A stretch of 58,262 nt of DNA from Chlamydiia bacterium (GCA_049314435.1 JBMOFD010000001.1:1-58262); one strand, 5' to 3'. Numbered from the stretch's first letter, positions 26,592 to 46,805 are shown. Translations and numbers: made by a program. Notes: generated by a model not told the origin, from the sequence alone.

Positions 26592-29500
26592 ATGACTTCG
26601 AATCCTCTGGATCCCCTTAAGGGGGTTGGGCCACCCGATGCCGCAGGGTCATCTCCTCATGAGGAGCGGCCACCACCACTCGTTCGGGAGGCCCTGCGAC
26701 AGATCTCTGAGGATTTTGCCGCCGCGACGCAGCAATCCACCCCAATGCGAGGGAAGGCCACAGACCAACCTCAGGAAGGAGCCCCTCTTTCGACGACTCA
26801 GGCGGCCACCCAGGAACTAGGGCGGCGCCTATTGCCCCCCCCTTCAGCTACCCATCTGGAAGCCAATTCTTCTATCGCTACAGGGAAGATCAATCTGAGC
26901 TTAACGGACGAGGAATTTTCAGCTCTGCACATCCTCGAAGAAGTGTCTCAACAGCTCCCACCTCCAAGCAACCTGGATGCCTCCGCCTCACTGCTATGGC
27001 TGGGTGACCGCGCTGGCGGTGCCGCGCTCAGTGCTCTTGCTGATAACCCCTCAGGTAGACACTCCTTTCCATCGCTCTCTCGCCTCTTTGATGGAGCTCT
27101 TGGTGTGGCCGATGAACTGCAACTCTGGGAATCACCAGAAACGAGCCAGACACGCATCAGGCTCAAAGCAGCTCAAGACTCTCTGTCCCCAACGGGAGCC
27201 TCCGCGCTATTCATGGCCAGGCGGAAATTTAGATTTAAGGGATTCCAGGAATGGCTGCGCCAGATCAGCACAGCGACTCAACCTAATGCTCCGCCCAAGC
27301 AGAAGAACCTCAGATGTCTGATCGATCGAGAGGCTCTGTATGTAAGGCGTGACCTTGAGCAAAGGGCTCATCTCAACCCAAGCGCTACCTTCACTCGAGA
27401 CGTCTATGCCGCGCTTCCTCAGGAGCTGACATTGGCTTTACAGATACCAGCCGAGCATCGAGGCGTTCCTCTAGCTTATGCCTTTGACCATCCTGGTGTA
27501 GCCGGTCACGCCGTCGTGGTGGAATGGAGCTCCGATGCCAAGAGCCTCACGATATGGAACTCGGGAGCCGGTGCGGAGCCAGCGAACGATGGCAAAGTCC
27601 ATCCCGCGGTTGTCTGGCGATTCCCCGACGAACAGGCTGCTCATTTGGCTGCGCTCTTCCTAGAGCTCTATGAGGTGGATGCCCGTATCAATCTCTCCGC
27701 CCTCCTGGAGGCGATAGGAGCATCAAAGGAGCTCCTCCCCGCAGAACCCTGCAAGCCACAGCGAGGCCCCACCTGCGTGGCTAAGTCCTGGGCTTATTAC
27801 CTCAAAGCCTTTCCTGCAGCCAAAGAGCAACAAACCGAAGTCGATCTCATCAATGCCCTCGTCGATGCGATGGCCGTAGCAACCTTACGTTCTGTGGAGG
27901 GCGCAGAGGCACTCTCCCGCAAGGACCTTGCCACCCTCACGCACTTTGCACGGTATCAAGCAGGCTATCGCTATGGCAAATACCATGGACAGTATCCCCT
28001 TCCCCCTGGACCAACGCCAGCGACCTTCCGCCGTCTTGCTCTGGAGATAGCTGAGCGAGGACTCGCTCCAGAGCCCGTGGAAGCACGCTCCTCTGTCCCC
28101 CTCCTCCCCAAGATGAATGCCCCTGTAGTCATCAGCGTGTACGAACAGAGGGCAGTCAGCCACTTAGGCGGAGCAAACCCTCCCGCTACCTTCGTCATGC
28201 GTCTACCCACAGGGGAACGCTATTCAAGAGACTCCCATGAGGGCGCGCAATCCGTTGCAGACGGCCTCAAGGACTCGCTGCGCTTCCAACTCTCCACTGA
28301 AGAAACACGCAATCTGTGGGAGTTTCTTCTGCAAGATCCCGACGCCACTCGTGAATATCTCTTTAGACACTCCCCTGATACAGGGATCGGCCAACCAGTC
28401 AAATCAGCCACCTTGGAATGGCCCTATTTGGTCCAGCCCAGCGATCCTCTGGGAGTCGCCTTGGGCGCTTTGTCACGATGGGCACCCATATTTGCCGCTC
28501 TCAACAAGCTCTCCCAGGAGGATCAATCCACACTCACCCCAGGCCTTGTGGAAGGTATGCGGACGCTCCTTCCTCTCAAAACCATCGCCTCTCCCAATCA
28601 AGAGGGTCAGGAAGCGATCCTCAAAATCATTCAATTGCTAGTCCCAGGGTATGAAGACACGCCTGTACCAGCAGCGGCTTTAGCCCCTCCAAGCCCGGAA
28701 GTGCACAAGCCATCTCCCCAGACGCTGGGATCGGTCGCTCGATTATTCATCCGGATCCGCCAGGCAATTGCGTCACTGGGGACTAGCTCTCGGAGTGATC
28801 CACCTCCCTCTGGCGCTCCAAAGATCGACGAACGGGTTGAAACATCACTGAATGGCATCCATGACCTTGCTGTTGCCTTCATAGGAGAAAACAGCGCAGC
28901 CATCCAAGCGGCATGCAGGAGGCATCCTAGCGAGGCCCTAAGCGGCAATGTACTCAGCGTTGACTTTTCTGCCGACAACCTACGCACGCTTGATCTCTAC
29001 AGTCTCGACCAAATTTTGAGGTTTGCCTGCGAGCATCTCTATGCCGCACAGGTTGAGTTTACCGGCAGAGCGAGCCCCCAGGCCGCCCCATGCTGGGCTC
29101 TCTGCTGCCTTACGGCCGTGGGCATCGCTACGGAACAAGCCCTACGTCATGACCCGTTCCCCGTTAACATGCACATGGCGAGAGAGGCTCCTGACACTTA
29201 TGAGTTGATTCCAAAGCGCTCACACTGGATCTCCTACGATCAAGAGGCTCCTAGTCCAGGCGTACCCGATAGTCTGCAGACTCGTTCAAGGCTAGCTGAA
29301 ACCCTAGCCGGTCTGAGCGCATTCAAATTCTTTGGACGGACTCAGCCTATAGCAGGGCACGCTAGCGGGTCTTCTGAGCTGCGTCTTGACGGCGAAGCAG
29401 ATCGACATTGGACCGGCATAGGCATCCAAGAGACGTTCGGATTGGAATCCCTTGTACAGTGGCTCTCCGACCCAATCAACATCACGCCTGCTAATCTATG

Positions 29501-32500
29501 TACGCTAGCAAGCTACTGTGATCCACTCAAGGGAATGCCTGAGGCTATTCCAAAATTGCATCCAGTCCTTCGCCTCGCTCCAGAACTCTGGAAGGCTTTT
29601 CTCAAACAGGTGGTCGGGAAATTTCAGGACGCGCCAACCGTGAACTTCCTTAGAAGTATTGCTATGGTCGCGTGGACATTCGACATTGCAGGGCTGCGTG
29701 ATTTGGAGCCACCGAGCTCATCTGCTGGAGAGATACGCGCAGTGTGGTCACAGGCGCTTGAAGACCTTTCAGCTTGCCTAGAGCAGCGAGGAGGCCTGCA
29801 GACCGATGCAGCCGACGCCCTTCTGTTGATGGCCACATGTATCCATGGCTCAGATCCGATGCAGTGGTCTGGGATGGACTCCGAGGCCACCGACCAGATC
29901 CCACCTCTTCTTGAGCGCATCTTCAAAATCTATAACGTGGATGTCGCTCAACCCGACGGAAACCGCCTCATACTCAGCATGATGCATCGCGAACGCCTCA
30001 ATCTGTGCCTAGCCCTCGAGCAGAAGCGTAGAACCGCGGGTGTTACAAATCCGGACACGATCGACCTAGGCGATGGAAGCTTCTTTCTCCTGCCCATTGC
30101 GACTCGCAAAAAGGACTACTTTGCCAACCCACGAGCCTACTCCATCAGCACTCACCACGAGCTCGTCGAATGGGCGCACAAGCGGGAAAAGCAAATGCTA
30201 GCCTCACCGGGCTCCCTCGAGATCATCCTGGACCCGTGGCTCTCCCTGTGCTACAAGACCGGCGGCTGTACCCTTGAACTGGCGACACCGGAGGGTAGTC
30301 TCCTTCCTCGACTGAGCATGGAGCTGTCCGACGAGAAGCTCAAGGAGCTCCTGTCCATGGGAAGCCAGGAGCCATCCACAGCGGGCTCGAGAATGAACAT
30401 GCTCACCAGTGGCGCCTACTTGGGGGCATGCCCACTGTACCCATACCAGGGAGAATCGAGCGATCTAGCTCAGGACATCCGTCAACTCCTCCGCATTCCT
30501 GCCCGTCGACCCGTCATCGCCTCTACGAGTGGAACAAGCAAGCAAGAGCCCTCCTCTTCCAGATCAGCCGGCTCCTCCCTCGGTCTCGGGCGAGTTAGCT
30601 TGGCTCCACCTAAGACTGGTCTTCGGGTTGATGCGTTCTCACTACACTACCTCCGCCCTTATGACGCCTCGCTTGACTTTAGCATCAGGATTTCTCCTGG
30701 GCCAAACGGGGCGGCGCCGATTGAAAGCAGAGCCTTCGTTGAGCCTGGAGGCTCCCCCAGAAAACTCACACAGGTATTCGACTTCCAAGGCCTTCGCATC
30801 GCCGAGCTGGAGCCTGGAGAGGGCTATTCTTTTGTGATCCCTGAGCTCACAGTACAGGGCACAGCATTGCGATTAGGGGGCCATTGGTCAGGCGGAGATC
30901 TTCATCTTGTGACACAGGATGGCTGGGAACTCGACTGGTCCATGCGCGATCGGCTGCCTCTTGTTCTTCGTAACCTTGTCCATGAGGACGACCAGATCGC
31001 CATTCCTATCCGGCGCGGCGACCGCGTGGGCATCCTGTACGGATCCAAAACGGGCGAGTGCGTTCTCCTAGAGGCACATCCGATCACACAGGAGGTTGTC
31101 CCTCTGCATGACCTCGCGCACGATGCCGCGGTGGCCTTTCTAGCCTCCATCCATCGCAACCCGGACCTCGCCCTACAAATGGCTCCGTACCTACGTGGGG
31201 ACCCCGATCTAAGAGAATCGCTGGGCAAAAAACTCAAGGAGGTCTGCGCGGAGCTTCGCCAAGGTCATGGGCTTCTCGTGACGCAGATCATTAAGGCCCT
31301 CGAGCCTCCGCCGCCAGTCAGCTGGAGCGAAGCCAACCGCACTGCGATGCCCCTCCCCCCACAGAGAGCTGTAATCCCGAGCGGCTTTGAATCCTGTCTG
31401 CAGGCGCTCCAACAACCGCAATCGGACGTTCTGGCCGATCGACTGCACTCTCTCTCCAACGAGGTGGGTCTGCTCCACGGCAAAGCGATACAAGAGATCG
31501 AATCCTGGTGGAACGAGCTGCCCTCCGCAGTGCAGGCTCGCCTTAAGTTCAAAACAACGGCCAATTTGGTTGGCTCTCTTCTGCACCTGTGGGTGCAAGC
31601 TGAGCAAGCACAGTCCCTCGTAGTGTACCAAAATCTGTTTGGGCAAGTGTCTCATGTAGGGAGTCAGCCTCTTCCAGAAGCACTGGCAGACCTACATCGG
31701 CGCCTCAGCAACTTGGCCAGTCTGAGCGTGCAGAAACAACTCCTGAACAGGATTTCGCGTTTCGATCTCGCTGCGAACCGGGAGCTCATCTTTAAGGAGC
31801 TACGCGCCGTAGAGAGCCGCCTGCTAGGTGGCGAACGCACTCCAGGAGCTCGCGCTCTACTCGTTCTGGAGTGGCTGCGAGATATACGGGCCTACCCCCA
31901 TCAAGTGGAGATGCTTCAAGCTCTCTGCGATCCGCAGGCGCCCTCTCGGCTGATTGAAATCCCGCCCGGCGGAGGAAAGACCTCTCTCCTCTTGATCGCC
32001 ACGGCCCTGGAAGCCGCATCTCGTGAACGAGCCAGGACTAGTGATCCCCATCCAACGTTAATCGTATTCCCAGATGCTCTTGAATCGGATATGAGACGTC
32101 AGGCTATGGTGCAGGGAATGGAACTGTTAGGAGAGCCGCTTCCTACGGCACCACCGAATAGTCTAGAGAAACCCGAGAACCTGATAGCAGCTGCCATGGA
32201 GTGTGCTCGTAGGGGGCTGCCTCTTCTACTGACCAGTAGTCAATTGCGCCTCACGCAGGGCTTTGCAGCGTATTTAGCCCTTGAACGCGACCAACACCAA
32301 GATGATGCGGGTGCGATGAAGACCTTCCTTGGGTCGATCGTCCTCGTCGATGAGGGAGACCAGAACCTCGACCCCTCCCGCAGCTTCAATATCGAGGTCG
32401 GGGCAGAAGAACCTCTTAGAGAGTCCACAGTGGCCGCTACCTGCCAGCTCATGGATGCTCACGGCGCCCTGCGCTCCTTTGATCTGTCGAAGAAGGAGGA

Positions 32501-35099
32501 ATGCCAAGCGGCGCTCCAGCTATGCCAAGAGGTCCTACCGAGCACGCTCTACTCGAACGAGGAGAAGCACATATTGACCCATGTGGCCCTAGGACTCTGG
32601 AGCAGAACGGAAACTGACACCTGGATCACCGCACTTGGGATGCCGCTGCCAACAGAAGCCAAGATTGACCAATGCCTCCGGAAGAGTGGATCGACACCCG
32701 AACACCATGCAGCAGCTGAGGAGCTTGCCGCTTTGGCCACCATGATCAGGAAATCGATCCCCTCTCTTCAACAGATGAAGTATGGGAGGGACTATGGACC
32801 CGCTTCAGAAACTTCTCTTTCTATCGTCCCCTATCGGGCAGCTAACTGGCCCTCAGATGAAAAGTACATCGACCCATGCCTCATCGCCACAGTCTCCTTT
32901 AACGGATGGCTACAACCCGCATTTTGGACGGCTCCTAGAGTGGAACTTCTCCATCATCAGCTGGTGGATCTCAAGAATAACCCATGGATCACAGCTCTCT
33001 TTCAGGAACTCCCTGCTCTCAGCAGTGGCCCGGGACCATTGCAGACCATCCTAGCCAATCCCTCCAACCAGAAGCTGCGCGCCAAGATGGCGGCACTCCT
33101 CTTACAGACTGAAGCAAGAACGGGCGCACGCCGCATCTCCATTCCTGCAGCGGCTCTGGCCTCCACCTGTTCTAAGTGCATTGCGGTAACCGGCACGGCA
33201 GCCCCCTCCTCTACGCTACCCTTCGGACTGCACCGCGGCGTAGAGCAGCCGGCCTCTCAGATTCAAGAGCGCATGGAGCAACTCTTAGAGCAGTGCCCTG
33301 TCCGAGTTCTACCCACAGGCAATGCATCTCTCACCGACCGCACCTTGCAGATGGCCCGTAACGAATCAGCTTTGAAGCCGCAGTTCTTTCTGGACCCGAC
33401 TGGCAGCCTCATCGATAGAGACGTAGACCGTGCAGTTGACACTCTGTGCGAGATCAACCGCTCAAACGACCCCATGCGTCTTGAGTGGGTCTTGGAGAAA
33501 AAGCACAACTACCCAGTTATGAACCACCGCGATGCACATGGTCAGCTCCACTCGATTCCCAACCTGGCGGCCCTAGCTGGTGAGCAGAAGGTCGCTGTCT
33601 TCGGGCAGGCTCAGTGTCGCGGCACCGATCTGCCCAGAACCAAGGGCGAGATCGCTTGGCTTCTGCTTGGCAACGCCACGGCTGACCTAGGGGCCCGCGA
33701 CTACATTCAGGCCGCCCTGCGCATGAGAGGACTAGAGGATAAGGAACAGGCTCTGGTCCTCATCATGGAGGAGTCTCTCAAACGGGAGCTCGAACACAGT
33801 GGCCCGGGGCTGACCCTCAACCAAGGTTTCCTCCGTCATGCTCAGCAAATCGACAAGGCACGAGACCCGCTCAAGCAGATTGCCATCCTAGATGCAGACC
33901 TGTGCACCTTCGATCTGCTCTTGGCCATGAACGCCCTCTTTTCGGGCGACCCCGCACTCAGGCAAGATCCCTGTGTCAGAGAGATCATCATCGATAGCCC
34001 CGTTCCCCAGCTTTCTAAGATGGTCGAGGCCGATCGAAAGGAATCCTTGAAGAGCCAGTTCAGTCGACAGGTCACTCGACGATTGGATCGCCTGCAGACG
34101 ATCCTAGACGGTAGATCGCTCTCCCCAGAACTCACGAAGCGCTTCGAAGAGATCAGACAAGGCTTGGAGCACTGGAAAAGCTGGCTGCAAACACTCCCCC
34201 TCGAGCAGGAACGTATCCAACCCGAGAAGGTCCAAACAGAACGAGTCCTTGCCACCGCCTCAGAAGTCGCACAGGAGACGGCAACAGAAGCCGAACTCCT
34301 CCTGGAGCGCGAAATCGAGCGCGAGCTAGAGCTCTCTAGATCGGCTCACGAACTGGAAGACCTGTCTCACTACCCCAGGCTTTCTCGGTCGATCCGATCC
34401 TGCGAAGAACTTGCCGGCTTGGTAGGAACACCGGCGCCCTTCGAGATCTCGAGGGTAGACCGTTGCGATGAGATCTTAGGATCTATCCTGCAACGAGCGA
34501 ATCCTGCAGGGGACGTCCCTCGTCTAACCCCTGCCCAGCAGCTCCAAGCCCTAAAGAAATCACTGGTTGAGGAATTGAAGCCATTCCACTTTTCACCAGC
34601 CTCTCAATTCCTGTTTTGCACAGACAAAGGTGAACTTCCGGACCTGATCTCCCTCAGTAGCACGAAACGTCCCAACCCTTACCTCTTCTGGCTACGCGAC
34701 TGTGCGGGTCTGGTGCATGTCGCTGTCCTCGGTCCCTATGAGGCATCGGCCCTTCTTGAAACGGACAACGACTCCTTAAAACGTCTGTCAGAGTCTGGCC
34801 AACTTATGGTCACCCAAATTACGGGGACCCCGATGTCGACGCCCTTTAATCCCCTCCTCACCCCGGAGGCCCTGAATCAGTGGCGGGCAGAAATTGCCCA
34901 CCATCAGCAAGACCTCATACGGATGCGAGCGCTGTATGGCGATCTTACCCTTCGCCAAGATCCTCTAGCCCTTGACTTTCTGTGCGAGCACCCCATGTGG
35001 CGACAAATGCTTCTCGCTAATTTTACAGACAAAGAAGCGATGGCCAGCATCCTCACGGCCCTTATGATGCGTTCACGCAAAATCCGGCTCCCCGACTAG
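26592..35099 (+). CDS. giant multidomain protein (2,835 aa) with an SF2/SecA-like P-loop ATPase core
   Basis: Uninterrupted 8.5-kb ORF with a disordered N-terminus and no signal peptide. Ordered helicase-like motifs: YPHQ...PPGGGKTS (31968..31985), VLVDEGDQ (32340..32363), VTGTA (about 33186..33200), CRGTD (33615..33629) and QAALRMRG (33708..33731). Confidence 0.85.
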   Translation: MTSNPLDPLKGVGPPDAAGSSPHEERPPPLVREALRQISEDFAAATQQSTPMRGKATDQPQEGAPLSTTQAATQELGRRLLPPPSATHLEANSSIATGKINLSLTDEEFSALHILEEVSQQLPPPSNLDASASLLWLGDRAGGAALSALADNPSGRHSFPSLSRLFDGALGVADELQLWESPETSQTRIRLKAAQDSLSPTGASALFMARRKFRFKGFQEWLRQISTATQPNAPPKQKNLRCLIDREALYVRRDLEQRAHLNPSATFTRDVYAALPQELTLALQIPAEHRGVPLAYAFDHPGVAGHAVVVEWSSDAKSLTIWNSGAGAEPANDGKVHPAVVWRFPDEQAAHLAALFLELYEVDARINLSALLEAIGASKELLPAEPCKPQRGPTCVAKSWAYYLKAFPAAKEQQTEVDLINALVDAMAVATLRSVEGAEALSRKDLATLTHFARYQAGYRYGKYHGQYPLPPGPTPATFRRLALEIAERGLAPEPVEARSSVPLLPKMNAPVVISVYEQRAVSHLGGANPPATFVMRLPTGERYSRDSHEGAQSVADGLKDSLRFQLSTEETRNLWEFLLQDPDATREYLFRHSPDTGIGQPVKSATLEWPYLVQPSDPLGVALGALSRWAPIFAALNKLSQEDQSTLTPGLVEGMRTLLPLKTIASPNQEGQEAILKIIQLLVPGYEDTPVPAAALAPPSPEVHKPSPQTLGSVARLFIRIRQAIASLGTSSRSDPPPSGAPKIDERVETSLNGIHDLAVAFIGENSAAIQAACRRHPSEALSGNVLSVDFSADNLRTLDLYSLDQILRFACEHLYAAQVEFTGRASPQAAPCWALCCLTAVGIATEQALRHDPFPVNMHMAREAPDTYELIPKRSHWISYDQEAPSPGVPDSLQTRSRLAETLAGLSAFKFFGRTQPIAGHASGSSELRLDGEADRHWTGIGIQETFGLESLVQWLSDPINITPANLCTLASYCDPLKGMPEAIPKLHPVLRLAPELWKAFLKQVVGKFQDAPTVNFLRSIAMVAWTFDIAGLRDLEPPSSSAGEIRAVWSQALEDLSACLEQRGGLQTDAADALLLMATCIHGSDPMQWSGMDSEATDQIPPLLERIFKIYNVDVAQPDGNRLILSMMHRERLNLCLALEQKRRTAGVTNPDTIDLGDGSFFLLPIATRKKDYFANPRAYSISTHHELVEWAHKREKQMLASPGSLEIILDPWLSLCYKTGGCTLELATPEGSLLPRLSMELSDEKLKELLSMGSQEPSTAGSRMNMLTSGAYLGACPLYPYQGESSDLAQDIRQLLRIPARRPVIASTSGTSKQEPSSSRSAGSSLGLGRVSLAPPKTGLRVDAFSLHYLRPYDASLDFSIRISPGPNGAAPIESRAFVEPGGSPRKLTQVFDFQGLRIAELEPGEGYSFVIPELTVQGTALRLGGHWSGGDLHLVTQDGWELDWSMRDRLPLVLRNLVHEDDQIAIPIRRGDRVGILYGSKTGECVLLEAHPITQEVVPLHDLAHDAAVAFLASIHRNPDLALQMAPYLRGDPDLRESLGKKLKEVCAELRQGHGLLVTQIIKALEPPPPVSWSEANRTAMPLPPQRAVIPSGFESCLQALQQPQSDVLADRLHSLSNEVGLLHGKAIQEIESWWNELPSAVQARLKFKTTANLVGSLLHLWVQAEQAQSLVVYQNLFGQVSHVGSQPLPEALADLHRRLSNLASLSVQKQLLNRISRFDLAANRELIFKELRAVESRLLGGERTPGARALLVLEWLRDIRAYPHQVEMLQALCDPQAPSRLIEIPPGGGKTSLLLIATALEAASRERARTSDPHPTLIVFPDALESDMRRQAMVQGMELLGEPLPTAPPNSLEKPENLIAAAMECARRGLPLLLTSSQLRLTQGFAAYLALERDQHQDDAGAMKTFLGSIVLVDEGDQNLDPSRSFNIEVGAEEPLRESTVAATCQLMDAHGALRSFDLSKKEECQAALQLCQEVLPSTLYSNEEKHILTHVALGLWSRTETDTWITALGMPLPTEAKIDQCLRKSGSTPEHHAAAEELAALATMIRKSIPSLQQMKYGRDYGPASETSLSIVPYRAANWPSDEKYIDPCLIATVSFNGWLQPAFWTAPRVELLHHQLVDLKNNPWITALFQELPALSSGPGPLQTILANPSNQKLRAKMAALLLQTEARTGARRISIPAAALASTCSKCIAVTGTAAPSSTLPFGLHRGVEQPASQIQERMEQLLEQCPVRVLPTGNASLTDRTLQMARNESALKPQFFLDPTGSLIDRDVDRAVDTLCEINRSNDPMRLEWVLEKKHNYPVMNHRDAHGQLHSIPNLAALAGEQKVAVFGQAQCRGTDLPRTKGEIAWLLLGNATADLGARDYIQAALRMRGLEDKEQALVLIMEESLKRELEHSGPGLTLNQGFLRHAQQIDKARDPLKQIAILDADLCTFDLLLAMNALFSGDPALRQDPCVREIIIDSPVPQLSKMVEADRKESLKSQFSRQVTRRLDRLQTILDGRSLSPELTKRFEEIRQGLEHWKSWLQTLPLEQERIQPEKVQTERVLATASEVAQETATEAELLLEREIERELELSRSAHELEDLSHYPRLSRSIRSCEELAGLVGTPAPFEISRVDRCDEILGSILQRANPAGDVPRLTPAQQLQALKKSLVEELKPFHFSPASQFLFCTDKGELPDLISLSSTKRPNPYLFWLRDCAGLVHVAVLGPYEASALLETDNDSLKRLSESGQLMVTQITGTPMSTPFNPLLTPEALNQWRAEIAHHQQDLIRMRALYGDLTLRQDPLALDFLCEHPMWRQMLLANFTDKEAMASILTALMMRSRKIRLPD

Positions 35100-35130: not shown

Positions 35131-35186
35131 GGCGGAGCTCCACTTCGGGCCTCAGCTGGAGGACTGCCGTCCTCCAGACCTCCTGA
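35131..35186. repeat. REP-like double-hairpin intergenic element, copy C
   Basis: GGCGGAGCTCCACTTCGGGCCTCAGCTGGAGGACTGCCGTCCTCCAGACCTCCTGA. Lies between the convergent 2,835-aa gene and smc. Confidence 0.7.
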
Positions 35187-35196
35187 ATGGGAGGTA

Positions 35197-38100
35197 TTAG
35201 ACTCCCACTGTATCCAACATCTCTAGCTGTGGCTCAGCTTCTGCAAAGTCCAAGGCCAACACGGTGCTGACCCCCTTCTCCTGCATCGAGACGCCCAGTA
35301 ATAGATCGGCTGCGGCCATCGTCCTCTTGTTGTGGGTGATGAGGAGGAACTGCGTCGAGTGCATGTAGCGCTCTAAGAGACGGAGGAATCGTTCGACGTT
35401 CGCATCATCCAGCGCAGCATCCATCTCATCCAAGAGGCAGAAGGGAGCAGGCTTGGTCTCGAACATCGCAAAGAGCAGCGCCATGGCCGTCAGGCTGCGC
35501 TCCCCTCCACTCAGCAACTGGAGGATCTTCGTGTGCTTCCCTGGCGGTTGCGCAAAGATCTCGATCCCCGCCTCTAGCAAGTCCCCACCATCAGTGAGCT
35601 TTAGATCGGCTGTGCCCCCTTCGAACAGAAGCGAGAAGTTACGCTGGAAGTGCCCGCGGATCTCCTCAAAGCTGTCTTTAAAGAGCTTCCGACTTGCCAC
35701 CTCAAGAGATTGGAGCTCATCTTGGAGCTGCTTCTCCGACTCCGTCACATCATGCAACTGCTGAGCGAGGAAACGGTGTCTTTCACCCACTCTCTCTAGC
35801 TCCTCGATAGCCCCTAGGTGGATGTCTTTAGCCTGCTCCAGCTGCTGGCGCAGCTCTCGCACCTCTTTTTCAGCGTGGCTGATCCCCTCTTGCAGCGCCA
35901 CCTCAGCACTGATCTCGGCAAGAGGCTCAAAGAAGCGCTGAGTGTAGTCATGTGCCAGCTGAGTAAGAGTCTCCTGCAGAGCTGCTGTTTGCTGTTCGAT
36001 CTGCTGACGCTGTGTCTGCGCGTGCCGCAGCTGTTGACCTCCGTGCACTAAGACTTGCTCCGCCTGATGAGCCTGCTCTCTCAGCTGCTCCAGCTGACGA
36101 GCGACCTCTTTGGCCTGCTGCTGAACCACCACGAGCTGATGCTGGAGCTTTTCCATCTCTTCCAGGGTTGCGGCTGCGTCTTTTTCCGCCCGTTGAGAAG
36201 CTTGCTCCTCGTCTTGAACACGCTGACCCAACATCACGATCTGCTGTCGAGATTCCTCCTGCTGTACTTGGAGGAGTTGCTGTCGGTTGAGCCTCTGCGC
36301 CTGCTCTAGTCGTCCCTGCTGAGACTCCTGCTCAATCCGGTGCCATTGTTCTTGTGCCGCCTGGTACTTGGACCTGCCCTGCTCAGCCGCCGCCTGTACG
36401 GACTCGCGTTTCACCCCAAGTGCCTGCACCAGCTCTTGCTGCTGAGCCGCCTGGCTACGGTGCTCTTCTACACTCTTCTGTCTCTGCTCTCGCTGGCTGA
36501 CCAACGAGCCAAGCTCCTGCTGGAAGGAGATCTCCTGCTGAGCCATCTGCTCCAACCGCAGCCGCAGCTGCTGCTCAGCCATCGTTCCTTCAACATACCG
36601 GATGTCCAGGCGACGCACCTCTCGATCGGCGAGCTGACGACGCTGCTCTGCGTCCGCCTCAGCATGCCGCGCCAGACGCAAACGTTCCTCTGCACCCCCG
36701 ACTTGCTCATTCACCGTCTTCAACTGCAGCGTCAGCGCTTGCAAACGCGCCTGATGCAACAGAGGGTCCCCAGAGGAGCCCGCGCCGCACCAAACAAGCC
36801 CAGCCGGAGTACGCACCCAGCCATCCAACGTAGCTACCCATCCTGAAGCCGCTAAGAGACGAGTACTCTCCACCAGGTCCAGTCCCTGTAGGAGCGGCGC
36901 CAGCAAAGGCTGTCCCCCTAACAAGGCATCGCAGCTGTCGGAAAGCTCTCCAGCACCAGGTGCATAGAGCACGAGATCGGTGAGCTGTTGCGTACGTGCG
37001 AAGGCAAACGCCGCCCGCAGGGCCTCCTCATCTCGACAAAGGAGAGCGGCATTGGCTCGGCCTAGGGCCGATGCCAATAGCCGCTCCGTCCCTGGATGGA
37101 CCTCTACATGGTCCAGCAATCTGGAGACCTTCCCATGAAGTGGGCTTCCTTTGCGTTGAGCCTCTTGCAAAAGGGCCTGCGCGCCCTGGCCTAACGACTG
37201 GCCCTCTTCCACCCACTGCTGCACCAGCTGATGCTGACTTTGCAGCGAGGTCTGCTCACTCGTAAGGCGCTGCCACTCCTGGACACAGGCCTCACTCGCT
37301 TGTCGCAGCTGCGTCCACTCCCGATCACACGCTTCGAGGGTTGCCTTCGCGGCAGCCACCTGAGCGCGCGTCTCCTGTAGCTGCTTCTCGCGTTCGCGAT
37401 GCTGCTGGCGGAGAGCTTCCCTCTCCTCTGACTGCTGCTCCATCCGCTGCTGGAGCTGTCCCGCTCGGTCCTGAAGACGCTGCGTCTCTGTGTGCTGGCG
37501 CTCCACCTCAACGGAGAGCTGTTGTAGCAGGTGGACCGCCTGACGCTCCTCTTGCCAGCACGCTTCGAGCTGCTGACGCAGCGCTTGTTCGTGCTCCTGA
37601 GCCTCGCGATAGGACTCCTGCACCATCTTCAGAAGTTGATGCTGTGCAGAGTCCCCCTCTTGGATGGAGACCTCCATCCCCTGTAGCTCGACCAGCTCGT
37701 GAGCCCACTGCTCGATGCGCACTTCAATGCGCTCCTGGTCTGTTTTGAGACGCAGCTGCCTCTGATGCCCTTCCTCACGCTGTCTCTGCAACATCCTGAG
37801 AGAGGCTCGCAGTCCTTCCAGTTTCTGCTCAGCCTGATGCTGGGCTAGACGTTCGGCATCCCACGAGGCCTGCGCCTGACGTACCCTCTCCTGAGACTGG
37901 ATCAGCTCCTGTTGCTGCTGTTGTTGCAGCTCAGCGCCACCTTGCAGCTGGTCCTGTAGCTGAGCACCCTGACGTTCCAGATTGAGCTTCTTGTGGAGGA
38001 CAGTCTGGTACCGATAGTGGAAGATCCCTCGTTCCAGGCGATCAGCACGATCCTTTTGCTCCCGGAACTTACGGGCTGCTGCTGCCTGACGCTCCAACAC

Positions 38101-38709
38101 GGAGACCTGCTGGGCCACTTCCTTGTGGATGTCTTGGAGCCGCTCCAAGTGGGTGTGGTTCTCCTCGAGCTTGCGCAAGGTCTCCTTACGGCGCTCCTTG
38201 AAGCGGCTGATCCCGGCGATCTCTTCAAAAATGCCTCTACGCTCAGCAGGCGATGCCTGCAGGAGCTGGTCCACACGTCCCTGCTCAAAGACGCTGAATG
38301 CTTGGCGACCAAGACCAGAGTCCCAGAGAAGAGCTTGGATGTCTTTCAGACGCACAGGCTGGTCATTGAGCCTGAATTCAGAGTCGCCAGATCGGTACAC
38401 GCGTCTGGTGATGGAGAGCTCATCGTAAGCCACTGGGAGGATCCCCTGCACGTCGGCCAAGGTGACCGTGACTTCAGCAAATTGCATAGGCTTCTGCTTT
38501 TCGCTGCCTGCAAAGATGACGTCCTGCATCTTCTCGCCGCGGAGAGCACGGGCATTGGGTTCTCCGAGTACCCAGCGGAAAGCATCCACAAGGTTGGACT
38601 TCCCACATCCATTCGGCCCCACAATGGCCGTTAGGGCATCGGAGAAGCGTAAGACCGTCGTTTTTGCAAAGGACTTAAAACCCTGAATTTTGAGGGATAC
38701 GAGGCGCAT
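35197..38709 (-). CDS. smc: chromosome segregation protein SMC
   Basis: N-terminal head LKIQGFKSFAKTT...IVGPNGCGKSNLVDAFRWVLGE. Long Gln/Glu-rich coiled coils. C-terminal signature LSGGERSLTAMALLFA and Walker B FCLLDEMDAALD. Confidence 0.95.
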   Translation of the reverse strand: MRLVSLKIQGFKSFAKTTVLRFSDALTAIVGPNGCGKSNLVDAFRWVLGEPNARALRGEKMQDVIFAGSEKQKPMQFAEVTVTLADVQGILPVAYDELSITRRVYRSGDSEFRLNDQPVRLKDIQALLWDSGLGRQAFSVFEQGRVDQLLQASPAERRGIFEEIAGISRFKERRKETLRKLEENHTHLERLQDIHKEVAQQVSVLERQAAAARKFREQKDRADRLERGIFHYRYQTVLHKKLNLERQGAQLQDQLQGGAELQQQQQQELIQSQERVRQAQASWDAERLAQHQAEQKLEGLRASLRMLQRQREEGHQRQLRLKTDQERIEVRIEQWAHELVELQGMEVSIQEGDSAQHQLLKMVQESYREAQEHEQALRQQLEACWQEERQAVHLLQQLSVEVERQHTETQRLQDRAGQLQQRMEQQSEEREALRQQHREREKQLQETRAQVAAAKATLEACDREWTQLRQASEACVQEWQRLTSEQTSLQSQHQLVQQWVEEGQSLGQGAQALLQEAQRKGSPLHGKVSRLLDHVEVHPGTERLLASALGRANAALLCRDEEALRAAFAFARTQQLTDLVLYAPGAGELSDSCDALLGGQPLLAPLLQGLDLVESTRLLAASGWVATLDGWVRTPAGLVWCGAGSSGDPLLHQARLQALTLQLKTVNEQVGGAEERLRLARHAEADAEQRRQLADREVRRLDIRYVEGTMAEQQLRLRLEQMAQQEISFQQELGSLVSQREQRQKSVEEHRSQAAQQQELVQALGVKRESVQAAAEQGRSKYQAAQEQWHRIEQESQQGRLEQAQRLNRQQLLQVQQEESRQQIVMLGQRVQDEEQASQRAEKDAAATLEEMEKLQHQLVVVQQQAKEVARQLEQLREQAHQAEQVLVHGGQQLRHAQTQRQQIEQQTAALQETLTQLAHDYTQRFFEPLAEISAEVALQEGISHAEKEVRELRQQLEQAKDIHLGAIEELERVGERHRFLAQQLHDVTESEKQLQDELQSLEVASRKLFKDSFEEIRGHFQRNFSLLFEGGTADLKLTDGGDLLEAGIEIFAQPPGKHTKILQLLSGGERSLTAMALLFAMFETKPAPFCLLDEMDAALDDANVERFLRLLERYMHSTQFLLITHNKRTMAAADLLLGVSMQEKGVSTVLALDFAEAEPQLEMLDTVGV

Positions 38710-38866: not shown

Positions 38867-39355
38867 ATGGAAACAGCAGTGTCGGTGCTTGATGTGGCAG
38901 CTTACATTTTGGGTAAGTTCCAGGGTATGGGTAAGCCGGTGACCGCCATGAAGCTACAGAAGCTGGTCTATTACTCTCAGGCCTGGTCGCTGGTGTGGGA
39001 TGAAACTCCGCTGTTCTCTGAGAGAATCTTTGCCTGGGCAAATGGTCCTGTAGTTCCGGCCCTATACGAGAAGCACAGAGGAGAGTTTCATCTGACCTGC
39101 ATCTCCGGCGGGAATAGCGAACGATTGTCAACCAATCAGCAAGATACCGTAGATCAGGTCCTGGAGACCTATGGGGATAGGACGGCTCAATGGCTTAGCG
39201 ATCTAAGTCATCTAGAGCTGCCCTGGAAACAGGCCCGAGGGAATTTAAGTGACGGCGAGCGCGGGGAACAGGAAATTTCGCTTGCCTCCATGGAAGAGTA
39301 CTACGCCGGACTCATGCCCGACGATGGTCTAGATAGCGTTGCGACTACGGTTTGA
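38867..39355 (+). CDS. Panacea-domain (DUF4065, SocA/GepA-like) protein, putative antitoxin
   Basis: LDVAAYILGKF...MKLQKLVYYSQAWSLVWDETPLF...WANGPVVPALY is the typical DUF4065 N-terminal pattern. Confidence 0.75.
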   Translation: METAVSVLDVAAYILGKFQGMGKPVTAMKLQKLVYYSQAWSLVWDETPLFSERIFAWANGPVVPALYEKHRGEFHLTCISGGNSERLSTNQQDTVDQVLETYGDRTAQWLSDLSHLELPWKQARGNLSDGERGEQEISLASMEEYYAGLMPDDGLDSVATTV

Positions 39356-39370
39356 TCCCGAGTTCGCACC

Positions 39371-39825
39371 ATGGGTAAACCTCTCGGAAATGTTGCCAGC
39401 AAGAACCCTCAAGTTCCCTTTGAGCCTGGAGGCGGTAAGCAACCGCGCATTCAGGAACGACCGGCAGATGAGACAAATAAGCCGATTTTCGACTTCTCCT
39501 CGATGGACCTGGGTGGACCATTCGGCTGGGACAAATTAGAGCCTGTCCATCTGCCGTGGGTCTTCACCATGCTGTTTGAGTGCAACGTAAGACATGGCAA
39601 GAGCTACGAGACCAAAAGTCTCACTCTCCGCAGGGATCTGGGCTGTCCCGTGATGCTCACAGGAGACTGGCCGCTCTGGAACTCGACGACTGTGCCGACA
39701 GCCTGTTTTCTCTGAGAATCACGAAACAGCAAAGAGTGTGGGGGATCAAGGCAAACGCCATCCTCCATATATTGTGGTGGGATCCCTATCACCTGGTCTA
39801 TCCAACCAATCGCACGAACAACTGA
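39371..39825 (+). pseudogene. frameshifted partner gene of the Panacea protein (putative toxin remnant)
   Basis: The reading frame from ATG 39371 (16 nt after the Panacea stop) must switch frame near 39583..39592 to continue into TWQELRDQKSHS...LFSLRITKQQRVWGIKANAILHILWWDPYHLVYP. I recognise that C-terminus as a recurrent small-protein family from TA-like gene pairs, but cannot name it. The two halves are ORFs 39371..39715 and 39580..39825. Confidence 0.5.
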
Positions 39826-39999: not shown

Positions 40000-40602
40000 T
40001 TAGCCGCCTAGTTGCGCGTAGGAGTTGACGACCCCGTCTAGGAGACCGAAGTCCAGCGCTTCCTGCGCACTCATCCAGGTATCGCGATCGATCGCACGAT
40101 CGATCGTCTCAAAATCCTTCCCAGTGGCCTTGACGTAGAGATCCACGAGGAGCTTACGCGTCTTCAAGATCTCTTTCGCCTGGATCTCCAAGTCCGTAGC
40201 TTGTCCTTGGATCACTCCGTGGATACTAGGTTGGTGGATCATGATGCGAGCATAGGGCGTCGCAAAACGACGACCTGGTGCTGCTGCTAGTGAGAGGATC
40301 GATCCCATGGAGGCGGCAAGACCAGTCACCACAGTCGTCACCGGAGAGGTGATCATCTTGATCTGATCCCACAGTGCCAGCCCTGCATCCACAGACCCGC
40401 CGGGGCTATTGATGATCAGGGTAATGGGCTTACCAGGATCTATCGACTCCATGTACCAGAGCCGGCGGATCGCTTCAGCGACCGACTCGCTGCTCACGGC
40501 ATCCGAAAAGAAGAGCCGACGAGCCTTGATCATCGCCCAGTCGATCTCATCGTCGAGCTGCTTGGGCTTCTGGGGGGCATTCTCTTCTGCCATCATGAAC
40601 AT
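40000..40602 (-). CDS. clpP: ATP-dependent Clp protease proteolytic subunit
   Basis: [18 protein letters not shown]...[17 protein letters not shown]...IMIHQP carries the catalytic Ser and His contexts. The start overlaps the glyA stop. Confidence 0.95.
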
Positions 40603-42095
40603 ACGGATATGGCCTCACTTAAAGGAATCTCAGGATAAAGGGGAAAACGATGCATCAGATCCAGCACACGAGCTCGGACCGCTTGGCATGCCGCCTGCGG
40701 CACACGCACAGCAGCCTTCTGCGGAGCCTCGTCGGGCTTGGGCTTCTTCTCAGCCGCACGTAGGACCGTCACGATCAGCTCGGCAAGCTCGCCCATCTCA
40801 GTCGTGCCCATACCCAACGTAGTCACCGCAGGAGTGCCCATGCGGATCCCAGAACCATGAAGTGGCCCCATCGGATCGGAAGGGATGCTATTGCGATTGA
40901 CAGTCAGACCACACTCGCGCAGCGCCATCTCGGCTTGCCGACCTGTTAGCCCGAATGAGTTCGCTACCTGCATCATCACGAGATGGTTGTCAGTCCCACC
41001 TGTCACAAGCTCAACGCCGTGACTCCGCAGGGACTCCGCCAATGCGCGAGCATTCTCTAGAATCTTGGCTGCGTAATCCTTGAATGAGGGCCTTAGAGCC
41101 TCTTCAAAGGCCACAGCTTTAGCAGCCATCACTTGAGGCAAAGGACCACCCAGAACTAGAGGACATCCCCGGTCGATCGTCTCTTTCCATGCACTCTTAC
41201 ACAGGATCAGGCCACCACGAGGACCTCTCAAGGTCTTATGCGTTGTCGAAGTGATGATGTCGGCATAAGGTATGGGGTTCTCTTCCCCATGGAAGACGCC
41301 CCCTGCCACAAGCCCTGCAAAGTGCGCCATGTCTACGAGGAGTGTAGCGCCCACCATATCGGCGATTTCACGCATCTTCGCGAAGTTCAGCCGACGTGGA
41401 TAGCTCGAGTACCCCGCGATCAGCAGAAGAGGCTTCTCACGAAGAACATGCTCACGAAGACGGTCATAGTCTAGCCACCCTGTCGTCGGATCGACTCCAT
41501 AGGAGACCGACCGCATCATCTTGCTGCTAAAACTGTGTCGGTAGCCGTGCGTCAGATGCCCACCCGAATCAAGGGCCATGCCCATCATCGTCTGCTGCAT
41601 CATCTTCATGCGCACCGACTCGTACTCTTCGGGAGTCAGGGCATCGACCGACTTCTTACCCAGGCGCTCGATCTCGGGCTGCTGAATCCGTTGGATCAGT
41701 ACGCTCCAGTAGGCCACCATATTGGCGTCGGCCCCGCTGTGGGGCTGCACATAGGCGTGCTCACACTGAAAGAGCTGCTTCGCCAAGCTGACCGCACGGC
41801 CCTCTAGCTGATCCACCTGCTCGCAACCGGCATAGAATCGCTTGCCTACTACGCCTTCGGCGTATTTGTCGGTAAGCCAATTCCCCATGGAGAGCATCAC
41901 TGGCATGGAACAGAAGTTCTCGCTGGCAATGAGCTTCACATGAGTGCGCTGAGCGATCAACTCATCGATGATCGCACGAGCTACCTCTGGGGAGGTCTCA
42001 GCAATCACATCCAACCCGGCCAAAGAGGCAATGGCCGCACGGCTACGCTCTCCTGGTGGGGTGTTGTTTAAGTAGGCGTCTAGAAGGGAGGGCAC
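40593..42095 (-). CDS. glyA: serine hydroxymethyltransferase
   Basis: [27 protein letters not shown] and the PLP-lysine motif [16 protein letters not shown] place the start at the in-frame GTG at 42095 ([11 protein letters not shown]). The tracked 645-aa ORF has no internal Met in that stretch and its extension overlaps the upstream kinase gene. This gives about 500 aa, typical for GlyA. Confidence 0.92.
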
Positions 42096-42169
42096 GGGGA
42101 AGGCAGGACCTCTGGGGTTCAAAAGGGTTATTCTGCCAGACGCTCCCAATCCAGGCGAGTCTCCTTCAG

Positions 42170-42220
42170 CGGGGCGTTGCCCCGCGCCCCACTGGAGGAC
42201 GCTGTGCTCCAGACCTCCTA
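42170..42220. repeat. REP-like intergenic element, copy D (degenerate)
   Basis: GGGGCGTTGCCCCGC hairpin, then CTGGAGGACGCTGTGCTCCAGACCTCCT. Same orientation and same AGACCTCCT tail as copies A-C. Lies between the kinase gene and glyA. Confidence 0.5.
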
Positions 42221-43318
42221 TCTGAGAGGAAGATCTCGAAAAATCACCTGCTCCGCTAGCCACTTGGCAAAGCCCGAACGAGTGAGCGACTCCCCCGTCA
42301 TCACGTAGGAGCTTGCATAGGCGCAGGCTAGGCCTAATAGGGCCTCTCCCTGCAAGCCATAGGCTAGACCAGCCAAAAGCCCGGCATTGAAGTGATCTCC
42401 CGCTCCAGTCAACGTCATGGGGCTGCCGAGATCTGGGACTGCCATAGACAGAGTCGTCCCCTGGGTCTGAAGAACTGTACCCCTGCGGCTGTGTAGAACG
42501 AGATGCGCATGAGGAAGCACCTTCGCACACTGCGTACTGAGCTCTTCCAAGTTAGCTTCACTGCGCGGGCTTCCCGCTAGGCTAGCCACGGCCATCGCTT
42601 CCTTCCGATTGAGGCCCACCCACAAAGGACCGGGCCACTCTTTCAGTAGACGAACCGCCTGTTCTAGTGCCTTAAGACCACGCCGACTCGGATCGGCCAG
42701 ATCGATGAACATCGGACACAAAGGTGGTTTGAGATCTCTCAGATGCGCCCAAAGGTCTTCCATCCATGGCGTCATCGTCCAGTTCACCCAAGCCATTAGA
42801 GACACCTGGTCTAGGAGTGTAGCCCAGGTAGCGGTCTGCAGGCGCTGATTCACCTCGGGCAGGGTGAGGGTGGCCAACTCTCTCGGCTCACCCAACATGA
42901 TCTTCCCGTTGGTGAACTCGAGAGCCAAGGTACTCCCTGGATCGCCTATGGTGTGTAGATCGATGGGTAGACCAGCAAGGGAAGAAGCCAGCATGGGCAC
43001 AGACTGAGGCCACCCCAAGGTGCTGACGAGTGTCGTGGGAAGCCCTAGCTTGGCCGCTCCTCTAGCAAGGAGAGGGGCATTGCCGCCAAGACGCTCTTCA
43101 CGCACCTGGAGGCCATAACCAGAGGAGTGATCCGGGCTGACCGAACCAAGGAAGTCACGTATGGTCTCGTAGCAAATGGGAGGAGTCCCCTCTCGCTCGA
43201 CCACCCTGACCACGCGGTCGATGAATCCATCGCAACCAACCAGGAGACGGCCCTGAGGTGCCGCTTCTAGAACTTTAAGAACCCTATCTACCCAGGGAAT
43301 TGAGGACGAATCGTGCAC
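42218..43318 (-). CDS. PfkB/ribokinase-superfamily sugar kinase
   Basis: C-terminal signature LTGAGDHFNAGLLAGL plus GGNAPLLARGAAKLG near the N-terminus. Substrate unknown. Confidence 0.7.
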   Translation of the reverse strand: MHDSSSIPWVDRVLKVLEAAPQGRLLVGCDGFIDRVVRVVEREGTPPICYETIRDFLGSVSPDHSSGYGLQVREERLGGNAPLLARGAAKLGLPTTLVSTLGWPQSVPMLASSLAGLPIDLHTIGDPGSTLALEFTNGKIMLGEPRELATLTLPEVNQRLQTATWATLLDQVSLMAWVNWTMTPWMEDLWAHLRDLKPPLCPMFIDLADPSRRGLKALEQAVRLLKEWPGPLWVGLNRKEAMAVASLAGSPRSEANLEELSTQCAKVLPHAHLVLHSRRGTVLQTQGTTLSMAVPDLGSPMTLTGAGDHFNAGLLAGLAYGLQGEALLGLACAYASSYVMTGESLTRSGFAKWLAEQVIFRDLPLR

Positions 43319-46798: not shown

Positions 46799-46805
46799 CG
46801 CGGTC

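Follow-up and report, generated by a model that had tools for sequence, protein, structure and literature searches.

A giant protein of a Chlamydiia bacterium with a candidate thiol-hydrolase domain and an SF2-type ATPase resembles the DUF3638/DUF3645 proteins of giant viruses

The 58,262-nucleotide stretch JBMOFD010000001.1:1-58262 of a Chlamydiia bacterium assembly (GCA_049314435.1), referred to here as the window, carries at 26592..35099 (+) an uninterrupted open reading frame (ORF) of 2,835 codons with an ATG start. Its product (P0001) escapes every standard annotation library searched. An initial annotation, made from the sequence alone, had proposed a superfamily 2 (SF2)/SecA-like ATPase core combined with a possible His-Asn-Gln-Cys protease signature. 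Its ORF of 2,835 amino acids (aa) was confirmed by the ORF list and by translation, and all of its motifs were found at the residue and nucleotide positions that it gave. On balance, we favour the reading that the gene encodes a divergent bacterial (chlamydial) giant of the DUF3638/DUF3645 family, which would couple a thiol hydrolase to an SF2-type motor and would probably act on the host. That family was previously described from eukaryotes and giant viruses, and the bacterial member would be a new divergent variant of it.

Relatives of the protein and their link to the DUF3638/DUF3645 giants

When the whole protein was compared with Pfam, nothing was found at E ≤ 1 except a chance match to DUF717, and no matches were obtained in NCBIfam or among the PDB sequences. 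Consensus sequences of the family described below fared no better against Pfam than its single members. A word-indexed protein search with the whole protein, with the six-protein alignment or with the ATPase alignment returned the query itself, an identical protein being also present on a 29.7-kb Logan contig, or nothing, and a PDB profile search with the six-protein alignment gave chance matches only. Relatives were detected by an exhaustive phmmer search with residues 1640-2835 over 1.84 billion representative proteins: five proteins of 2,650-2,897 aa, with 28-31% identity, and nothing else credible. The sole relative with an organism label is NCBI MFZ4099662.1, from a metagenome-assembled genome (MAG) named 'Chlamydiia bacterium'; the other four come from JGI or Logan assemblies. 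Pattern scans derived from the family alignment yielded no further members among GTDB species representatives, JGI metagenomes and IMG/VR, and the 23 loci returned by a second metagenome scan, with a DNA pattern of the family P-loop, were all unrelated.

The six bacterial proteins can be aligned end to end with 22-24% identity. Invariant positions amount to 192 of 2,835 (6.8%), and conservation peaks at residues 301-400, 1751-1850, 2051-2100 and 2301-2400. The 'Chlamydiia bacterium' homologue (P0002) has an N-terminal extension with weak leucine-rich-repeat matches at residues ~154-230 (E 0.002-0.02), which the other members lack.

The initial annotation had suggested a comparison with DUF3638/DUF3645-type P-loop domains, and this turned out to be the right family. 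The six ATPase segments were scanned singly against Pfam at E ≤ 10, and four families appeared in total. DUF3638 (PF12340) matched four of the six members below threshold, each time on the Q motif and P-loop with its profile positions 18-85, and the best of these matches had 16.5 bits and E 0.0054. DUF3645 (PF12359), which usually accompanies DUF3638, matched one member, P0003, with 13.3 bits and E 0.054, on the invariant YGP...VPY..A.WPS...FSDP block. A further lead came from a Foldseek comparison of the N-terminal domain model with predicted viral structures, in which 'DUF3638 domain-containing protein [Hokovirus HKV1]' ranked first (E 0.12, 261 columns); this model-based match is independent of the ATPase region.

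Giant-virus ORFs were then retrieved with a DNA pattern of the DUF3638 P-loop wording, MGEGK[ST]..V[IV].P. The pattern found giant ORFs on AT-rich giant-virus contigs, L096 (3,036 aa), L098, L099 (2,577 aa), L100 and L103. The L099 ORF corresponds exactly to Hokovirus_2_216 (ARF10689.1, UniRef A0A1V0SG42, 2,574 aa), which bears the name 'DUF3638 domain-containing protein' in its source. An earlier viral scan with a motif VI wording had returned five phage loci, all unrelated.

Full-length hhalign comparison of the bacterial family with the viral giants gave five collinear local matches, all within ~100 positions of the main diagonal. These were the Q motif and P-loop block (E 0.0021), the motifs V-VI block (E 0.062), the His-Asn block (E 0.18), the DUF3645 block (E 0.42) and the Walker B block, DE.D...DP..S..N (E 0.9). 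The reversed and block-shuffled controls produced a single match, at E 0.96. With sub-alignments against the giant-virus proteins, E was 2.9e-4 for the ATPase and 0.0071 for the N-terminal domain. The P-loop lies at residue 1793 of 2,835 in the window protein and at 1622-1849 in viral ORFs of 2,577-3,036 aa that are complete, or at least complete at the N-terminus, and the VPY block of the window protein follows Walker B by ~160 aa.

The two groups thus have in common a size of 2,600-3,000 aa, an N-terminal H...N-x-G-x-G...Q-x4-C set with the P-loop ~1,300-1,600 residues past the Cys, and, in the same order, a DE.D...DP..S..N block, a VPY/F...PS...F.D block, a motif V with G-[TI]-D and a motif VI with Q..x.R.R. 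They differ in the P-loop, which reads GGGKT here and GEGKS in the known giants, in a very low similarity outside the motif blocks, and in the genomes that carry them, GC-rich (57%) and bacterial here but eukaryotic or AT-rich and viral there. As judged from these alignments, the most economical reading is a homology of the bacterial family to the DUF3638 giants over the whole length. In the portions of the literature available to us, DUF3638 and DUF3645 serve as domain labels, and DUF3638 is discussed once, as a widespread eukaryotic domain of undefined mechanism.

Single giant-virus genomes encode several DUF3638 giants: L098 and L100 both come from GVMAG-M-3300023179-139, and at least two such proteins, A0A1V0SG42 and A0A1V0SG94, belong to Hokovirus. 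The family is therefore expanded in Klosneuvirus-like viruses.

A candidate thiol-hydrolase domain and an SF2-type ATPase

The residues His306, Asn323, Gln390 and Cys395 had been named in the initial annotation, which rated its own protease reading as weak pattern matching. The alignments make the set much stronger. All four are invariant in six of six bacterial proteins, for which the chance, with four pre-named residues, is ~2e-5. His306 is the only one of 69 His residues to be invariant, and of the 38 Cys residues two are invariant, Cys395 and one located in motif V of the ATPase. An alignment of nine N-terminal domains, from the six bacterial and three giant-virus DUF3638 proteins, revealed a common H...N-x-G-x-G...Q-x4-C signature, and the invariants in and near the domain are limited to His, Asn-x-Gly-x-Gly, Gln, Cys and one Glu. 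The Q-x4-C spacing is identical in nine of nine proteins; among the nine, the His-to-Asn distance ranges from 17, the value of the window protein, to 25, and the His-to-Cys distance varies from 89 to 144. The His strand, Asn and Gln-Cys motifs read GHAVVVEW, LTIWNSGAGA and KPQRGPTC in the window protein, GHLVGVYY, IITNSGQGV and PQKSGSC in Hokovirus, and THAIGLYF, YVINTGAGA and LQTMGNC in L096.

An AlphaFold model of the N-terminal domain, built with the six-sequence alignment, has a mean predicted local distance difference test score (pLDDT) of 57.6, with values below 50 at the putative catalytic residues. In this low-confidence model, the topology would agree with that of clan CE: strands of a sheet carry His and Asn, and Cys follows at the N-terminus of a helix. 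No peptidase was matched when it was compared with PDB and BFVD by Foldseek. The Foldseek results are taken as hints only, here and for the ATPase, because both AlphaFold models, each from an alignment of six sequences, are of low confidence.

The order H306, N323, Q390, C395 is that of clan CE (Ulp1/SENP of family C48, ChlaDub1/2, ElaD/SseL, adenain), namely His, Asp/Asn, Gln, Cys. Other likenesses are the His that opens a hydrophobic strand, the acid or amide residue that ends the next strand, a P-Q...G-S-x-C wording ahead of a helix, a stretch of variable length between Asn and Gln, and an upstream W-x-x-D that recalls WLND. The His-to-Asn distance of the window protein is also that of Ulp1 and SENP1, whose sequences were checked residue by residue against 1EUV and 2IYC. 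When C48 blocks were slid along the family, the His block ranked fifth and the PQ block third at the expected sites. Clan CE enzymes serve as effectors in Chlamydia and in chlamydia-like bacteria, and in the latter CE-clan, USP, OTU and other deubiquitinase (DUB) effectors are abundant (PMC10643670).

The family also differs from clan CE. No match to Pfam Peptidase_C48, C5, C55 or C57 was obtained at E ≤ 10, and profile similarity to C48 and ElaD stayed at E 0.5-0.65 (SENP1 alone, E 0.5; ElaD, E 0.52; neither significant). The catalytic His is followed by Ala, Arg or Leu (H-A, H-R or H-L) in the family, as against HW in Ulp1, SENP1, SENP8 and NopD, and the substitution W191A inactivates SnCE1, a CE-clan enzyme of Simkania (PMC10643670). 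The spacing is Q-x4-C instead of Q-x5-C, and the domain is embedded in a 2,835-aa protein that contains an ATPase. Of the kinship with CE-clan (Ulp1/ChlaDub) proteases put forward in the initial annotation, the order of residues is confirmed, and membership in the clan could not be shown; the comparison of the N-terminal domain with CE-clan peptidases that it had suggested gave no match with Foldseek and no significant one with hhalign.

The nine-sequence profile of the domain was also compared with a profile of verified papain (1KHP), cathepsin L (2XU3) and cathepsin B (3K9M). The top two hhalign matches were the blocks His159-Asn175 (E 0.011) and Gln19-Cys25 (E 0.46), in swapped order. The wording of both catalytic blocks resembles that of family C1, with H-A-V-x-x-V..., h-h-h-N-x-G/W-G and Q-x-x-G-S-C-x-A. 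Unlike in papain, where Gln and Cys precede His and Asn, the family has H-N ahead of Q-C, and the blocks match only as separate non-collinear local alignments; overall sequence similarity, a signal peptide, a propeptide and a disulfide pattern are missing as well. Circular permutation of the N-terminal domain alignment did not improve the papain score. Since the two best local matches are the papain catalytic blocks in swapped order, the domain is best described, from its sequence, as a candidate papain-type catalytic set in circularly permuted order. A His...Cys dyad of clan CD (caspase-like) was considered and rejected: the His stands at the beginning of a hydrophobic strand and not at its end, no Gly comes after it, and no hydrophobic strand precedes the Cys.

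In the ATPase module the SF2 motifs Q, I, Ia, II, III, V and VI occur in canonical order and are invariant across the six homologues. The order of motifs noted in the initial annotation, between ~31890 and 33735, is thereby borne out, and both lobes align with an SNF2 profile. This profile was built from 79 mostly chlamydial sequences, the SNF2 protein of the window and 78 relatives from fetched loci. The N-terminal lobe (motifs I, Ia and II) matched it with E 3.5e-4 (E 2e-5 and a probability of 77% when trimmed), and the C-terminal half (motifs III-VI), in an independent alignment, with E 4.2e-4; reversed and 20 column-shuffled controls had E ≥ 0.025. The AlphaFold model of residues 1735-2425 has a pLDDT of 56.4 and a predicted template modelling score of 0.35. 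Nearly all of its top Foldseek matches are SF2 helicases (DinG, Dicer-2, Hef, RIG-I, Dbp5, UvrB, PriA), all at E ≥ 0.02. Because both halves align with the SNF2 profile while the controls are weaker, and because the Foldseek list is rich in SF2 proteins, the assignment as an SF2-type two-lobed ATPase is supported by these comparisons.

Like SNF2/Swi2, DEAD-box, Cas3 and SecA proteins, the module would have motifs Q to VI in order across two lobes. Unlike the named SF2 families, it matches no Pfam helicase family even at E 10, has no detected accessory domains, and carries the DUF3645-like block in a family-specific insertion of 280 aa that separates motif II from motif III. The invariant residues of this block are G2069, P2070, V2079-P-Y, A2084, W2086-P and D2094-P, and it was aligned to the viral aVPf...tPs.kSEfSD.

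Could the module be a SecA-like motor for polypeptide translocation? Motifs I, III, V and VI read similarly in E. coli SecA (E-x-x-x-G-x-GKT, TGTA, x-RGTD and R-x-x-x-Q...R). The preprotein cross-linking domain of SecA sits between motifs II and III, an interval that is likewise expanded in SecA, with 182 residues from DEVD to TGTA, and the window protein has its large insertion at this same place. Yet hhalign against E. coli SecA aligned only 15 P-loop columns, with E 0.096 and a probability of 0.6%, in what is a weak test with a single-sequence template; the fetched loci contained no SecA for a profile. No member matched SecA_DEAD or any other SecA family of Pfam even at E ≤ 10, SecA was absent among the 50 best Foldseek matches, and motifs V and VI are 30 residues apart as against 64 in SecA. 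The specific likeness to SecA that the initial annotation had seen is limited to motif wording and the position of the insertion; it was not demonstrated, and we regard a SecA-like motor as very improbable.

Gene layout, neighbourhood and other features of the window

The coordinates of the gene, its modules and the repeated element around it are collected in Table 1. Over the first 100 aa the protein is rich in Pro, Ser, Ala and Gln, and a hydrophobicity scan found neither a transmembrane segment nor a signal peptide, the highest Kyte-Doolittle mean over 19-residue windows being 1.47, which is below transmembrane level; the initial annotation had described this end as disordered, rich in Pro, Ser and Gln and free of a signal peptide. 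Residues 1-115 may conceivably serve as a secretion signal. Pfam scans of the whole protein and of the family consensus gave no family matches in the middle region (aa 471-1754) or in the C-terminal region (aa 2396-2835). The G+C content of the gene, 0.56-0.59, equals that of its flanks. No similarity was detected between the protein and the other giant ORFs of the window, and paralogy with them was rejected.

Table 1. Position of the giant gene, its modules and motifs, and the flanking repeated element in the window
Feature	Coordinates	Strand	Basis
Complete gene, 2,835-aa protein P0001	26592..35099	+	ORF list, translation
N-terminal low-complexity, unconserved region, aa 1-115, Pro/Ser/Ala/Gln-rich, no hydrophobic signal	26592..26936	+	Composition, hydrophobicity scan, poor conservation
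Thiol-hydrolase-like domain, aa ~125-470; invariant W136-x-x-D139-R-x-G-G, H306, N323-x-G-x-G, Q390-R, C395-x-A-K, A422-L-x-D	26964..28001	+	Six-protein alignments
His306 codon, predicted general base, in GHAVVVEW	27507..27509	+	Only invariant His; aligns with papain His159 (hhalign)
Asn323 codon, predicted third triad member, N-x-G-x-G in WNSGAG	27558..27560	+	Invariant in bacterial and viral proteins
Gln390 codon, predicted oxyanion-hole residue, in KPQRGPTC	27759..27761	+	Invariant; aligns with papain Gln19
Cys395 codon, predicted nucleophile, in KPQRGPTC	27774..27776	+	Invariant, viral relatives included; aligns with papain Cys25
Long middle region of low conservation, aa 471-1754; small islands are conserved, e.g. 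E947-T-x-G-L, G1444-W...L1455-P	28002..31853	+	Alignment, conservation profile
ATPase module of SF2 type, DUF3638/DUF3645-like, aa 1755-2395; motifs II and III separated by an insertion of ~280 aa	31854..33776	+	Invariant motifs, profile comparisons
Q-motif-like YPHQ, residue 1768; Q1771 invariant	31893..31904	+	Aligned to giant-virus block
Walker A / motif I, GGGKT, residue 1793, invariant	31968..31982	+	Aligned to SNF2 GLGKT and viral MGEGKS
Walker B / motif II, DEGD, residue 1920, followed by ...DP..S..N; D1920, E1921 and D1923 invariant	32349..32360	+	Aligned to viral DEVDEISDPLKSQLN and SNF2 motif II
DUF3645-like block YGP...VPY..A.WPS...F/Y.DP, aa 2066-2100, inside the insertion	32787..32891	+	Alignment; DUF3645 match of P0003
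Motif III, TGTA, residue 2200; G2201 and T2202 invariant	33189..33200	+	Aligned to SNF2 LTGTP
Motif V, QAQCRGTD (RGTD 2343, 33618-33629), eight consecutive invariant residues from Q2339	33606..33629	+	Aligned to viral DQtHItGiD
Motif VI, QAALRMRG, residue 2373; Q2373, R2377, R2379 and G2380 invariant	33708..33731	+	Aligned to viral aQGifRmRN and SNF2 QAtDRvHRIGQ
C-terminal region, aa 2396-2835; Glu-rich stretch at aa ~2500-2600, terminal part moderately conserved	33777..35096	+	Composition, alignment
REP-like element, upstream copy, ~65 bp	26396..26460	+	blastn, alignment; fold z-score -2.8
REP-like element, downstream direct copy, between stop codon and smc	35132..35196	+	91% identity over 55 bp

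The giant gene is divergent to an SNF2 helicase gene at 22585..26292 (-), across a 299-bp spacer (26293-26591) as the initial annotation had it, and convergent with smc at 35197..38709 (-). The flanking genes, der, yidD, the SNF2 helicase gene, smc, clpP, glyA, proS and lplA, are housekeeping genes. The product of this SNF2 gene contains SNF2-rel_dom and Helicase_C domains. Its earlier label as a SWIM protein could not be confirmed, with no SWIM match in Pfam at E ≤ 0.001 and no CxCx(6-25)CxH. Its full-length relatives occur mostly in Chlamydiota MAGs, at ≤ 42% identity, which makes a deep chlamydial lineage the most likely source of the window.

This arrangement was not conserved. No synteny was seen across the four homologue loci, and no relative of the giant was found near the SNF2 gene in 80 other SNF2-bearing loci, so that a syntenic association with SNF2 or SMC was rejected. 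P0003 is accompanied by DUF4116 proteins and a HepT/MNT pair, P0005 adjoins an autotransporter gene, and P0006 is flanked by MsrB/HAD genes on one side and a P-type ATPase on the other. P0004 is divergent to a gene for a 443-aa protein (L084 4237-5568 (-), also L085 119-1450) whose match to the USP-type family PF00443 (E 7e-6; 26.2 bits, with the cut-off at 23.9) spans the His-box part of the profile only; by its sequence, this protein may be a second candidate deubiquitinase-like effector in the genome of P0004. A role as a component of a defence system was rejected as well, the PADLOC match of the window protein being a P-loop-level one to Cas3g, at positions 16-66 of 836 (E 0.0012). The pattern of contexts fits a stand-alone gene, and not a component of an operon or of a defence island. 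The window also encodes an AAA_14/DUF4143 ATPase at 944-2248 (+), and a gene of the same type lies ~850 bp downstream of P0003, on an unrelated metagenome contig; this recurrence may be a coincidence or reflect a shared mobile gene.

The repetitive extragenic palindromic (REP)-like element that the initial annotation had reported in the spacer is real. It is ~65 bp long, contains a hairpin with a 9-bp stem, CTGGAGGAC-TGCC-GTCCTCCAG, and has copies both upstream and downstream of the giant gene. A pattern search gave two matches, where none was expected. A degenerate third copy is present at ~22517-22565, in the stretch that separates the 3' end of der from that of the SNF2 gene. The element could be REP-like, similar to a miniature inverted-repeat transposable element, a terminator, or a trace of the insertion of the giant gene.

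Other parts of the window hold further genes of interest. At 2383-8193 (+) there is an unusually long secretin of 1,936 aa, with GspD N0, four Secretin_N repeats, a C-terminal Secretin domain and a long uncharacterised stretch in between. Downstream of it lie two adjacent giant ORFs, of 1,716 aa (10441-15591, +) and 1,656 aa (15750-20720, +), which are mutual paralogues with 31% identity over ~1,600 aa and have no Pfam or PADLOC match; the same lack of matches was observed for ORFs of 1,395 aa (53482-57669, -) and 735 aa (44615-46822, -). A SocA/Panacea antitoxin-like gene (38867-39355, +; E 6e-18) is followed 15 bp on by a 114-aa ORF without a family match (39371-39715, +), possibly forming a toxin-antitoxin pair near smc and clpP. 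The serine hydroxymethyltransferase ORF at 40593-42530 (-), 645 aa from a GTG, overlaps the ORF at 42218-43318; its best match to Pfam SHMT spans residues 312-586, and its true start is probably further downstream. A full-length bacterial RNase P RNA of class A (207.5 bits) is encoded at 52148-52523 (-).

Alternative explanations and biological meaning

According to the reading that we favour, the N-terminal domain (aa ~125-470) would act as a thiol hydrolase, in which Cys395, at the start of a helix, would attack a carbonyl, with His306 as the base, Asn323 orienting the His, both on neighbouring β-strands, and Gln390 stabilising the oxyanion. The ATPase (aa ~1755-2395) would use K1796 of Walker A, D1920 and E1921 of Walker B, TGT of motif III, RGTD of motif V and R2377 and R2379 of motif VI, and hydrolysis of ATP would drive movement on, or remodelling of, a polymer, either a nucleic acid or a polypeptide. 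The thiol domain would cleave an (iso)peptide or thioester bond on that polymer or on a partner, both activities being directed to the same target. The protein would be exported and would act in the host cytosol, like other eukaryote-derived effectors of chlamydia-like bacteria, because its N-terminus is unstructured and lacks a Sec signal, because the bacterium, given its likely chlamydial origin, is probably intracellular, and because the only relatives found outside bacteria are proteins of eukaryotic viruses. The context, i.e., the absence of synteny, the USP-type gene next to P0004, the weak leucine-rich repeats of P0002 and the lack of a transmembrane segment or signal peptide, also points to a host-directed role. 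Ubiquitin-like conjugates would be the first candidate substrates, since DUB effectors are abundant in chlamydia-like bacteria (PMC10643670).

Several results weigh against this reading. Both structural models are poor (pLDDT 57.6 and 56.4), so neither predicted fold is verified, and confidence is lowest at the putative catalytic residues; no Foldseek match for either module reached E 0.001 or better. A verified five-sequence C48 profile was matched by hhalign at a non-significant E of 0.57 and 0.65, the Asp and Cys blocks of C48 fell outside the top five at the expected sites, so that the sliding comparison does not single out the Asn and Cys sites, and the similarity to the papain blocks appears marginal. 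The individual hhalign probabilities are low, from <1% to 77%, and the Pfam scores stay well below the gathering cut-offs (31 bits for PF12340, 25 bits for PF12359), so that the proteins would represent a divergent branch. The chlamydial origin rests on the MAG label of one relative and on the similarity of a neighbouring gene, at ≤ 42% identity. Secretion, the substrate and the coupling of the two modules are entirely what we infer.

Three other explanations were weighed. The Cys-His-Asn site could be catalytic without belonging to a protease specific for ubiquitin-like proteins, namely as an acyl- or acetyltransferase (YopJ branch of clan CE, NAT), a deamidase or a transglutaminase, whose target the ATPase would deliver or position. 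Enzymes of these classes all rely on a Cys-His-Asp/Asn triad in a fold that is papain-like or related to it. The missing Trp after His, which SnCE1 needs, also fits this explanation, as does the finding that four of five Simkania CE-clan proteins had no DUB or probe activity (PMC10643670). On the other hand, an invariant Gln five residues ahead of the Cys is the classical oxyanion-hole arrangement of proteases, and the HAV..., N-x-G-W-G and Q..GSC wording is closest to the peptidases of family C1. We consider a transferase or deamidase, as an alternative to hydrolysis, conceivable but rather unlikely overall. Another proposal, that the His-Asn-Gln-Cys set is structural or ligand-binding and that the domain is a non-enzymatic recognition module, draws on the lack of a significant profile or fold match to any peptidase with hhalign or Foldseek, and on the unspecific block-sliding result at the Asn and Cys sites. 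Many pseudo-enzymes retain parts of their motifs, which provides a precedent. Against it, the four residues, the G-x-G and one Glu are the only invariants between bacterial and viral proteins in a domain with almost no other shared sequence, the Q-x4-C spacing is fixed, His306 is the sole invariant His in 2,835 residues, and the motif pair maps onto the two catalytic blocks of papain; a non-catalytic domain seems improbable to us.

The remaining explanation concerns the place of action. The protein could stay in the bacterium as a nucleic-acid helicase or translocase, serving chromosome maintenance together with SNF2 and SMC, or it could form part of an anti-phage or conflict system that has a protease as its effector. 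Its SF2-type ATPase aligns with SNF2 and Cas3-like P-loop regions, the gene lies between the SNF2 helicase gene and smc, and a recognisable secretion signal is missing. Giant fusions of ATPases and proteases are, in addition, common in conflict systems. The neighbourhood, however, is kept in none of the four homologue loci, nor did any of the 80 other SNF2 loci contain a relative; the PADLOC match goes no further than the P-loop of Cas3g, and the flanks are housekeeping genes and not a defence island. The only detectable outside relatives are eukaryotic-virus proteins of DUF3638, a domain that the literature describes as eukaryotic, and this pattern is characteristic of genes that intracellular parasites of protists exchange with one another. 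An intrabacterial role is accordingly judged unlikely, and we retain the host-acting DUF3638/DUF3645-type giant as the favoured explanation.

A bolder hypothesis extends to the whole family, and we offer it tentatively. The H...N-x-G-x-G...Q-x4-C domain might constitute a new family of circularly permuted papain-like thiol hydrolases and be the catalytic end of all DUF3638/DUF3645 giants. These would be ATP-driven (iso)peptidases, captured from eukaryotes, directly or indirectly, by chlamydia-like bacteria and giant viruses, and directed against a eukaryote-specific pathway, for which ubiquitin-like conjugation would be the first candidate.

The placement of this orphan illustrates a route that consists of an exhaustive search followed by profile-profile comparison. 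The conservation of His, Asn, Gln and Cys across kingdoms is the most useful new lead, and its presence in bacterial and viral members gives the DUF3638 family a functional hypothesis that can be tested by mutation. If the proposed relationship is true, giant viruses and chlamydia-like bacteria, two groups with a life inside cells of eukaryotes, would have yet another gene family in common. The gene is also a candidate for an effector directed at the host, in what is probably a deep lineage of the chlamydiae.

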